DNA of 17,976 nucleotides from Escherichia coli. GTDB lineage: Bacteria; Pseudomonadota; Gammaproteobacteria; Enterobacterales; Enterobacteriaceae. This document shows, piece by piece, positions 6,968 to 15,728 of this stretch; the first letter of the stretch is position 1, and every line of letters starts with the position of its first letter. The position numbers and the translations under genes were made by a program. Below the pieces are notes generated by a model. That model did no database searches and had not been told where the DNA came from. It saw only the letters and a list, made by a program, of their open reading frames with translations. The DNA lies in NCBI RefSeq assembly GCF_003334385.1, contig NZ_QOWN01000062.1. The stretch is one strand, 5' to 3'.

Positions 6968-7301
6968 ATACAGCGAACTCCATTGGTTTAGTTGGATATT
7001 TACTGTGCTGGACAAAAACGGTTTGCGGGGAAATCTTAGTTAAGTAGAATGACTGCGGGTGCTTGAGGCTATCTGCCTCGGGCATGGACACCAACGGCAG
7101 ATAGAGAAAAGCCCCAGTTAACATTACGCGTCCTGCAAGACGCTTAACATTAATCTGAGGCCAATTTCATGCTAGACACATGTAGGTTAGCCTCTTACGT
7201 GCCGAAAGGCACGGAGAAGCAGGCTATTGTTAACACCAAGCTGTAATGTCCCCTTTGAACCATTCTAAAATGTCCCCAGACAATTCTCTGGGGGATTTTT
7301 C

Positions 7302-11826: not shown

Positions 11827-12126
11827 AAAAATTCCTTAATACTGATAACTTGGCGCACTATACACACGTTCCTGAAGAAAGCTATAGTTTTTTGATGGGG
11901 TTGAAGATGGCTGGATGTCTAAAATAAACATTGCTTCATATGTTCAACTATGCGTTAATGATTGCGTCGGTTTGAAGAACAGACGATATACGAAGTAGTT
12001 TACTAAAGCAGTTCTCATTTCAGGTGTTATTCACTTATTCCTTCTTTGAGTCTCTCCAATTAAGTACGAAGTCGTTTCTGTTATGCAAACCATTTATGCC
12101 GAAAGGCTCAAGTTAAGGAATGTAGA

Positions 12127-12342
12127 ATGTCAAATAAAATGACTGGTTTAGTAAAATGGTTTAACGCTGATAAAGGTTTCGGCTTTATTTCTCCTGTTGA
12201 TGGTAGTAAAGATGTGTTTGTGCATTTTTCTGCGATTCAGAATGATAATTATCGAACCTTATTTGAAGGTCAAAAGGTTACCTTCTCTATAGAGAGTGGT
12301 GCTAAAGGTCCTGCAGCAGCAAATGTCATCATTACTGATTAA
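12127..12342 (+). CDS. cspB: Cold-shock protein CspB (71 aa)
   Basis: [71 protein letters not shown]. Long 5' UTR containing a TGCCGAAAGGC box, as in the csp family. Confidence 0.9.
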
Positions 12343-12624
12343 AATTCATCGCTCGTCTGTATACGATAACGAAGAAGGCTGATGCCTGAGTAGAGATACG
12401 GACAGAGTAGTGAATATTGGATCTCTTTAATAAAAAGTAAGGAGGTCCAATACATGAAACAATGGCCAGCATATTTGGCAAAATCTTAATCAGGAAAAGT
12501 ATGCTAACCATTGTGGTGAAGTGCAGGTTTGCTGCATGAATAGTTTTACAGCAGAAGCTAACTGCTGGCATGGCAAAACAAAGTGCGTAAGTGGATGACT
12601 CCCACAAAAAGCACCACAATCTCA

Positions 12625-14651: not shown

Positions 14652-15013
14652 GGTAATATTAAATCGGAACATTTACATCGCGGAATGTAAAATTTAAATA
14701 AAAAGGACTCTTCCATGAGCCAAAATTCCTGAAATCTTAAGGGTAAGATAAAAGGTCTTAATCAGAATGACACGTTTTATTAATAAATAAAGCTATTCTT
14801 TCATTGCTGTGTTTTTCTTTACAAAAGTAATCCTTGCTATGGGTGGTTAATCATGCGTTAATGGTGTTCTGGTTTGTTACAAATTTATCTGAAGCAGTCA
14901 TTGTTATAATTTTATTATTTGTACCTCTTGAGATTTCCTTGTTGGTTTTTCTCTCTGATATTTTTTTTCGGACCATTCTGCCCAAGGGCTAATTTCTTCA
15001 AAAGGTAATAATT

Positions 15014-15226
15014 ATGTCTAACAAAATGACTGGTTTAGTGAAATGGTTTAACCCTGAAAAAGGTTTTGGTTTCATCACGCCGAAAGATGGCAGCAAAGAT
15101 GTGTTTGTCCATTTCTCAGCAATTCAGAGCAACGATTTCAAAACATTAACTGAGAATCAGGAAGTTGAATTTGGTATTGAGAACGGACCTAAAGGTCCTG
15201 CCGCTGTTCATGTAGTGGCGCTTTGA
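15014..15226 (+). CDS. cspI: Cold-shock protein CspI (70 aa)
   Basis: [70 protein letters not shown]. Confidence 0.88.
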
Positions 15227-15314
15227 GGTAGACAATATTACAAACCATATTCACTTTAGATGCCCGTGTTGTCATGGTTCCCAGTATAGAACATCATCTT
15301 TTGATGTTTCTGAC

Positions 15315-15425
15315 ATGAATCCTTTCGGGGCAAAATGTATCTTTTGTAAATCAATGATGATTACATTTGATAATATTTCACAATACTTAAATGCCAGCCG
15401 TCTGTCGTTGGATTTAAAAAAGTGA
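15315..15425 (+). CDS. YnfN-like small zinc-ribbon ORF; only the ATG-initiated C-terminal part is annotated
   Basis: The frame is open from 15216 and encodes ...RCPCCHGSQYRTSSFDVSDMNPFGAKCIFCKSMMITFDNISQYLNASRLSLDLKK, but the CPCC half of the zinc ribbon has no in-frame ATG/GTG/TTG upstream. An out-of-frame ATG at 15259 suggests a frameshift. Confidence 0.3.
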   Translation: MNPFGAKCIFCKSMMITFDNISQYLNASRLSLDLKK

Positions 15426-15432
15426 AAATGAA

Positions 15433-15453
15433 GGCTCCTTCGGGAGCTTTTTT
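15433..15453 (+). terminator. Intrinsic terminator after the cspI / ynfN-like region
   Basis: GGCTCC-TTCG-GGAGC hairpin followed by TTTTTTG. Confidence 0.6.
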
Positions 15454-15497
15454 GCTTGGTGTCTATTCGATGGATACTCACATACTACGGTAACATC

Positions 15498-15728
15498 ATG
15501 AAAAAAATCATAGTTTTTTTTAACTCTGAACCAGCAGTGGTAGTGCCAGCGATGACTGGAGTTAACACCATCATGCGTGAATATCCAAATGGCGAAAAAA
15601 CACACCTTACTGTAATGGCCGCAGGGTTTCCATCTCTGACCGGAGATCATAAAGTCATTTATGTAGCCGCGGATCGACATGTTACTTCAGAAGAAATTCT
15701 GGAAGCAGCAATAAGGCTCTTGAGTTGA
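15498..15728 (+). CDS. Hypothetical 76-aa protein
   Basis: Internal ATG of track ORF 15456..15728: MKKIIVFFNSEPAVVVPAMTGVNTIMREYPNGEKTHLTVMAAGFPSLTGDHKVIYVAADRHVTSEEILEAAIRLLS. Starts just after a terminator. I recall no gene at this position in K-12 Qin. Confidence 0.45.
   Translation: MKKIIVFFNSEPAVVVPAMTGVNTIMREYPNGEKTHLTVMAAGFPSLTGDHKVIYVAADRHVTSEEILEAAIRLLS

Follow-up and report, generated by a model that had tools for sequence, protein, structure and literature searches.

Is a small reading frame that has no canonical start codon ahead of its first cysteine pair the remnant of a broken gene, or does its translation begin at a codon that a search for ATG passes over? The question is posed by a stretch of Escherichia coli DNA of 17,976 nucleotides (hereafter, the window), in which a frame encoding two cysteine pairs, CPCC and CIFC, lies directly behind a cold-shock gene. 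A first-pass annotation had described this frame as a ynfN-like zinc ribbon and had offered two explanations for its missing start: a frameshift that beheaded it or a noncanonical start. We read the frame as an unbroken gene, ynfQ (b4724), which the cryptic prophage Qin carries as the second cistron after cspI, with AUU as its initiation codon, and we assign this reading a probability of roughly 0.85. Because ynfQ and its ATT start already stand in the reference annotation, this part of the finding is known and ordinary.

Identity of the gene and its protein

Which gene is it? Segment 15000–15750 of the window is 100% identical in nucleotide comparison to the K-12 strain DH5alpha, and this 751-bp locus has matches in 2148 E. 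coli records, of which 1524 reach an identity of 99% or more. In the RefSeq annotation of DH5alpha and MG1655, the local gene order within Qin is rrrQ, rzpQ, cspI, ynfQ, ynfR, ynfN, gnsB, and the coding sequence of ynfQ, 62 aa from a first codon ATT, falls exactly on the frame in question (NZ_CP026085.1 for DH5alpha; NC_000913.3 for MG1655, where b4724 occupies 1638256–1638444). The label "ynfN-like" was therefore misplaced: ynfN (15498/15573–15728) is two genes downstream, with ynfR between it and ynfQ. The features of the window are collected in Table 1; the second thermoregulator, the sok antitoxin RNA, and the DicF sRNA are what is expected of Qin.

Table 1. Features of the window, in order of position
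Feature	Position	Strand	Basis and remarks
DicF sRNA	1420–1471	−	Rfam, 76.7 bits
sok antitoxin RNA	7057–7228	+	Rfam, 104 bits
Second cspA-type thermoregulator	11966–12358	+	Rfam, 158.8 bits; covers a 71-aa ORF (12127–12342), presumably cspB
cspA-type thermoregulator leader of cspI	14868–15013	+	Rfam RF01766, 112.8 bits against a gathering score of 78; match spans 14868–15253, including the cspI CDS
cspI, cold shock protein CspI, 70 aa	15014–15226	+	Stop TGA 15224–15226; ORF list; RefSeq annotation of the identical DH5alpha and MG1655 sequence
Shine–Dalgarno sequence GAGGT	15225–15229	+	Overlaps the cspI stop; 7 nt 5' of ATT
ATT (AUU) initiation codon of ynfQ	15237–15239	+	10 nt past the cspI stop; annotated CDS start in NC_000913.3 and NZ_CP026085.1
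ynfQ CDS, 62 aa, YmcF-like	15237–15425	+	Stop TGA 15423–15425; Pfam PF23641; 131 homologs
Out-of-frame ATG	15260–15262	+	A of AGA (Arg) plus TG of TGC (Cys); reads MPVLSWFPSI, then a stop; accident of codon choice, not a start
First cysteine knuckle CPCC, residues 9–12	15261–15272	+	Invariant amino acids, synonymous codon changes
Internal Met27 codon ATG	15315–15317	+	Not a start; residue is K, R, G, S, Q, or N in homologs
Second cysteine knuckle CIFC, residues 34–37	15336–15347	+	Sequence, translation, homolog alignment
ynfR, 21 aa	15428–15493	+	2 nt past the ynfQ stop; RefSeq annotation
Intrinsic-terminator-like hairpin, GGCUCC-UUCG-GGAGCU then U6	15434–15455	+	9 nt past the ynfQ stop, inside ynfR; sequence

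The gene name has changed hands. The "ynfQ" of VanOrsdel et al. (2018) is not b4724, and the name has since been reassigned; in Table 1 of PMC6001520 it denotes a 37-aa protein, identical to YnaM, that is encoded between ydfJ and ydfK (1632890–1633003). Text searches for ynfQ consequently mix two genes.

The neighboring ynfN carries a frameshift polymorphism in a run of Ts at 15514–15521, within 15498–15728 of the window. With eight Ts, as in the window and in DH5alpha, a 76-aa ORF opens at ATG 15498, 4 nt past the ynfR stop. MG1655 has seven; there the annotation gives ynfN 51 aa, with its ATG at the counterpart of window position 15573. Among IMG/VR contigs the run is T8 in 47, T7 in 10, and T9 in 1. 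Going by these counts, the MG1655 ynfN may be a minority allele, truncated at its N terminus.

What kind of protein does ynfQ encode? It matches the Pfam model PF23641 (YmcF-like) over its whole length, residues 1–62 of 62 (hmmscan, E = 7.2e-32, 109.8 bits), which places it in that family. Both family motifs, F-R-C-P-C-C-H-G-S-Q-Y-R-T-S and N-P-x-G-A-K-C-I-F-C-K, are present with their four candidate metal-binding cysteines. Their columns are invariant or nearly so in alignments of 34–41 sequences; within CPCC, the proline and the third cysteine never vary, and the other two cysteines are kept in 90% of sequences or more. Homologs retrieved by database search number 131 and come from across the Enterobacteriaceae; most are 62 aa long and are named "cold shock small protein YmcF," and their N terminus reads M-T-x-H-I-H-F-R-C-P-C-C. 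Among available genomes, more than 200 relatives were detected.

An AlphaFold2 model built on a 34-sequence alignment, of moderate confidence (pLDDT 75), places the cysteine knuckles on two short strands that bring them together, followed by a C-terminal helix (residues 44–58). Foldseek comparison of this model with the PDB gave no match below E = 0.1, and a sequence-profile search of the PDB gave chance-level matches only. With a moderate model and no significant fold match, the function of the protein is a guess; our best one is a zinc-binding ribbon whose target during cold acclimation would be nucleic acid or the ribosome. A recent review models YnfQ as rubredoxin-like with Fe (PMC13348028).

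Where translation of ynfQ begins

What do the letters themselves say? In the translation of 15213–15428, a TAG at 15213–15215 closes the ynfQ frame upstream, and 15216 begins the open stretch. No ATG, GTG, or TTG occurs in frame until the ATG at 15315, past CPCC; the 15 codons upstream of the cysteine codon at 15261 contain none. The first-pass annotation was right about the opening of the frame and about its first in-frame ATG. It had also pointed to an ATG one nucleotide out of frame beside CPCC, and this too is present, at 15260–15262 instead of 15259. By our own arithmetic, a run of 15 codons without a canonical start has a chance of about 0.47, or (58/61)^15. The absence of a start is thus unremarkable in itself and becomes meaningful because the 26 codons 5' of ATG 15315 are conserved as protein.

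Is the frame then a decaying pseudogene, in which a frameshift near 15259–15263 severed the ribbon from an ancestral ATG? The thought arises naturally from an ATG that is one nucleotide out of frame and a CPCC that no canonical start precedes. Alignment with ymcF, the K-12 paralog, and with 35–75 loci from other species, however, shows no gap at 15259–15263, and not one indel separates the window from ymcF or from any of the 75 homologous loci. The out-of-frame ATG occurs only where the arginine codon before CPCC is AGA, as it is in 9 of 35 loci; elsewhere that codon is CGN or AGG, and ymcF reads CGCTGT there.

The peptide HIHFR|CPCC is conserved on both sides of 15260 with synonymous variation. 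Across 35 loci, codons 5–17 (H F R C P C C H G S Q Y R), together with the serine at codon 19, show no amino-acid change at all, while synonymous codons vary freely (AGA, CGC, CGT, CGG, and AGG for Arg; CAT and CAC for His; TGT and TGC for Cys). At codon 4, 30 loci have Ile and 5 have Leu, and codon 18 is variable. This codon-level conservation 5' of ATG 15315 means that the region is translated. Purifying selection thus acts on both sides of the supposed break where a frameshifted pseudogene would combine an indel with relaxed selection, and all 59 viral contigs (59 of 59) carry the identical sequence, in addition to the 1524 E. coli records with near-identical 751-bp copies. Taken with the full-length Pfam match, the gap-free alignments overturn the proposed frameshift. 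The pseudogene reading is in our view vanishingly improbable; ynfQ contains no frameshift and is not broken, and the ATGs at 15260 and 15315 are lineage-specific accidents.

Could translation start at ATG 15315 all the same? Mechanical ORF callers list this codon, the first canonical start in the frame. The product would be a 36-aa peptide with only the second cysteine pair, and the conservation upstream would have to be noncoding. That conservation, however, is where the strongest codon-level purifying selection in the gene is found, and the Pfam model requires residues 1–62. Moreover, Met27 is confined to the ynfQ lineage (the codon is CGA in ymcF), no Shine–Dalgarno sequence precedes it, and none of the homologs starts at the equivalent of 15315 without CPCC. 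We consider this start very unlikely.

The conserved region instead points to the ATT at 15237. Among the 35 loci that adjoin a csp gene, codon 0, which lies eight codons before the first cysteine, is ATT in 32 and ATC in 3, and all 59 IMG/VR contigs with the flanking bases of the window have ATT there. Conservation ends exactly here: codons 5' of ATT are unconserved and include stops in 7 of the 35 loci, so that the coding region is bounded at codon 0. No canonical start occurs in the open frame before CPCC in the window or in about 14 species loci, and in loci of the Kosakonia type the frame is open for only 11 codons before CPCC. A Shine–Dalgarno sequence stands at functional spacing with an invariant AGG core; the surrounding motif T[AG]AGG is found in 35 of 35 csp-coupled loci. 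A second ATT, at 15249 (Ile5), is about 20 nt from the Shine–Dalgarno sequence, and codons 1–4 are partly conserved; 15237 is preferred. With no canonical start that fits the conserved coding region and ATT or ATC at its boundary, ynfQ has the makings of an AUU-initiated gene of the infC type.

Might YnfQ need no start of its own and instead be made as a CspI–YnfQ fusion, by programmed +1 frameshifting or by stop-codon readthrough at the end of cspI? The ynfQ frame, open from 15216, does overlap the last three cspI codons, and in some species it is open for 37–77 codons back into csp. Yet the frame relation is not constant: the gap is mostly 10 nt (+1 frame), but in Kosakonia-type loci it is 9 nt, which is in frame and blocked by TAA. 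The codons between the csp stop and ATT are unconserved as protein, and the junction has an ideally spaced Shine–Dalgarno sequence and an ATY codon that never varies. A fusion therefore seems to us highly improbable.

Annotation and comparative evidence together indicate that ynfQ translation begins at AUU (ATT 15237), and the noncanonical start that the first-pass annotation had offered as its alternative is the correct one, as already annotated in MG1655 and DH5alpha. In the accessible literature, including Weaver 2019, Nakahigashi 2016, and VanOrsdel 2018, we found no direct mapping of the YnfQ start by a ribosome-profiling initiation peak or an N-terminal peptide. On this reading, K-12 has at least two AUU-initiated genes beyond infC, the example cited in the literature.

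How is such a gene treated in annotation? Lambdoid phages 2H10 (both records; locus L085, 1191–1461), mEp460_ev081, PhiR42_1, and PhiR63_1 carry an intact ynfQ homolog after csp with no feature annotated under the match, and phage Tritos has its homolog annotated with an ATT start (L084, 1201–1389). Gene callers probably do not consider an ATT start. Other entries, from Citrobacter, Salmonella, and Caudoviricetes, are 70–71 aa long and begin at an in-frame ATG or TTG 16–17 codons upstream, inside csp (MLWRFKVTI...; P0006, P0008, P0011, P0014, and P0035; L003–L006 and similar). This extension lacks protein-level conservation and is probably an artifact of annotation. That standard gene callers miss ynfQ through its start codon is a warning for the annotation of prophages and phages.

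Start codon and the adjacent csp gene

Is ynfQ expressed together with cspI? The thermoregulator leader ahead of cspI and the hairpin with its U6 tract after ynfQ make the pair look like a bicistronic cold-shock unit. The terminator scan reports this hairpin as a minus-strand site only, its plus-strand orientation and U tract being read from the sequence, and it places no terminator between cspI and ynfQ. The paralog has a counterpart, GGCTCCctcgtGGAGCC-T6, after ymcF. In RNA-seq, cspI, ynfQ, and ynfN respond in parallel, and a table in the same study lists ynfQ as "cold shock induced" (PMC11228462). The neighboring YnfR is a cold-induced protein, detected as YnfR-SPA after cold shock (PMC6001520). 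Since ynfR overlies the terminator-like hairpin, its translation needs transcripts that include or read through the terminator.

The junction has the spacing of a coupled pair: the distance from csp stop to start is 10 nt here and 9–10 nt in 35 of 35 loci, with a variable spacer sequence. Opening of a hairpin over the Shine–Dalgarno sequence is unsupported as a coupling device. The hairpin predicted from the window alone is not significant (z = −1.5), and RNAalifold found no conserved helix masking the Shine–Dalgarno sequence across 35 junctions.

Does the type of start codon depend on the neighboring csp gene? We classified 75 loci from different species by start codon and by whether an intact csp ends 9–10 nt upstream. 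All 35 loci with an intact adjacent csp start with ATT or ATC and none with ATG; of the 40 others, 36 start with ATG and 4 (L020, L024, L043, and L069) keep ATT. Parsimony puts the number of changes of start type at about eight, a rough count of independent events because the neighbor-joining tree rests on 132 nt of related loci. Individual lineages illustrate the pattern. Klebsiella and Raoultella loci combine a decayed C-terminal remnant of csp with ATG; in Atlantibacter, where a remnant of csp is likewise left, a new ATG stands at codon +1; and in Citrobacter sedlakii a frameshifted csp goes with ATG. Directly upstream of ATG-type loci in Enterobacter, Leclercia, and Klebsiella, Rfam finds no cspA-like leader. 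The covariation of start type with csp is a correlative, small observation that we did not find in the searchable literature.

Two of these loci have features of their own. In C. sedlakii (L012, 1157–1566), csp has lost its normal stop by the change of frame and reads in frame into the ymcF homolog; in the Citrobacter species closely related to it, csp is intact and the start is ATT. In Enterobacteriaceae bacterium UBA7338 (L020, 1482–1508), csp is absent and ATT is kept. Here an eight-codon mini-ORF (ATG AAA AAA GGA TAC TAT TAT TAC TAA, MKKGYYYY) contains an AAGGA Shine–Dalgarno sequence and ends 3 nt past the ATT codon. Judging by its position, this mini-ORF could be a substitute upstream ORF that preserves the termination–reinitiation arrangement.

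What might hold a weak start codon in place beside csp? In reporters, AUU is six to eight times weaker than AUG, and where two cistrons lie close together, as at the infC-type junction UAA-GGU-AUU, reinitiation accounts for roughly half the translation of the second (PMC3592434). From these data and the covariation with csp, we infer that most initiation at AUU comes from ribosomes that finish csp. Either ribosomes fresh from termination on cspI or 30S subunits retained where stop and Shine–Dalgarno sequence meet would start at this weak codon. YnfQ would be made at a low level that follows Csp translation, and a lineage that lost csp would switch to AUG. Given the comparative correlation, we lean slightly toward a dependence of the AUU start on such translational coupling.

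A different account would have AUU used independently of cspI translation, as a switch gated by IF3 or temperature like that of infC, although the two partly overlap. IF3, which discriminates against AUU, would reject it at 37 °C, and weaker proofreading in the cold would permit YnfQ synthesis. The position of ynfQ in a cold-shock unit suits this idea, as do the four loci that keep ATT without an adjacent csp and the temperature sensitivity of IF3 fidelity, which may explain infC translation in the cold (PMC5499595, discussion). Such a gate, however, does not explain why ATG is found in 36 of 40 uncoupled and 0 of 35 coupled loci. Moreover, the ratio of IF3 to ribosomes rises in cold stress, and AUU mRNAs performed worse in the cold in vitro, where they competed poorly at low temperature (PMC5499595). 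We regard a gate independent of csp as unlikely. Poor use of AUU in the cold would itself be an odd fit for a cold-shock gene; reinitiation or relaxed IF3 proofreading would have to make up for it.

Coupling to csp can be put more generally: selection would keep AUU or AUC in the YmcF family for as long as translation of the gene is coupled to that of an upstream csp, and no longer, and AUG would have arisen on each loss of csp, about eight times within the Enterobacteriaceae. From the pattern across loci, we hold this wider proposition to be evenly balanced between true and false. In the searchable literature we found no paper describing csp-dependent retention of AUU in this family. If the proposition is true, cspI–ynfQ and cspG–ymcF would be natural near-cognate starts served mainly by terminating or reinitiating ribosomes, and a zinc-ribbon protein would be made in a fixed, low proportion to a cold-shock RNA chaperone. 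The link between start type and csp offers a cheap, testable natural system for studying near-cognate starts in reinitiation and in the cold.

Comparison with known systems

How does ynfQ relate to systems already described? At the level of the protein, the top Foldseek matches are generic zinc ribbons (the N-terminal Zn domain of MqsA, eL43-type ribosomal proteins, and TFIIE-alpha), which resemble the AlphaFold2 model in having CxxC-type knuckles on short beta strands. These matches are nonsignificant (best E = 0.27, TM about 0.3–0.4), and the C-x-C-C spacing of CPCC and the HGSQYRTS and NPFGAKC motifs are specific to the YmcF-like family. The ECs_2282 family of putative zinc-binding proteins (NCBIfam NF047912), likewise small and prophage-borne with CxxC, gives a weak profile match to YnfQ residues 5–49. 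This is the sole NCBIfam match and falls below threshold, at 17.8 bits against a curated cut-off of 37, and we rejected ynfQ as a member.

At the level of initiation, the nearest parallel is infC, which encodes IF3 and follows thrS. As in ynfQ, an AUU or AUC start is conserved across species a few nucleotides past an upstream stop, with UAA-GG in the junction, and in a reporter of the infC-type junction reinitiation was about equal to de novo initiation (PMC3592434; PMC5499595). The two differ in spacing (3 nt in infC, 10 nt in ynfQ) and in purpose: the AUU of infC serves autoregulation by IF3, and for YnfQ feedback of that kind is neither known nor expected.

The closest system of all is ymcF (b4723), the K-12 paralog that follows cspG. 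It shares with ynfQ the csp gene upstream, the stop inside T[AG]AGG, and an annotated ATT start after a 10-nt gap (counted from the TAA of cspG). It likewise encodes a 62-aa CPCC...CIFC protein of PF23641, about 63% identical to YnfQ (P0044), and has a GC hairpin and T tract just past its stop. ymcF lies in a chromosomal island, cspH-cspG-ymcF-ymcE-gnsA, whereas ynfQ lies in a prophage, and ymcF is free of the accidental ATGs that ynfQ carries at 15260 and 15315.
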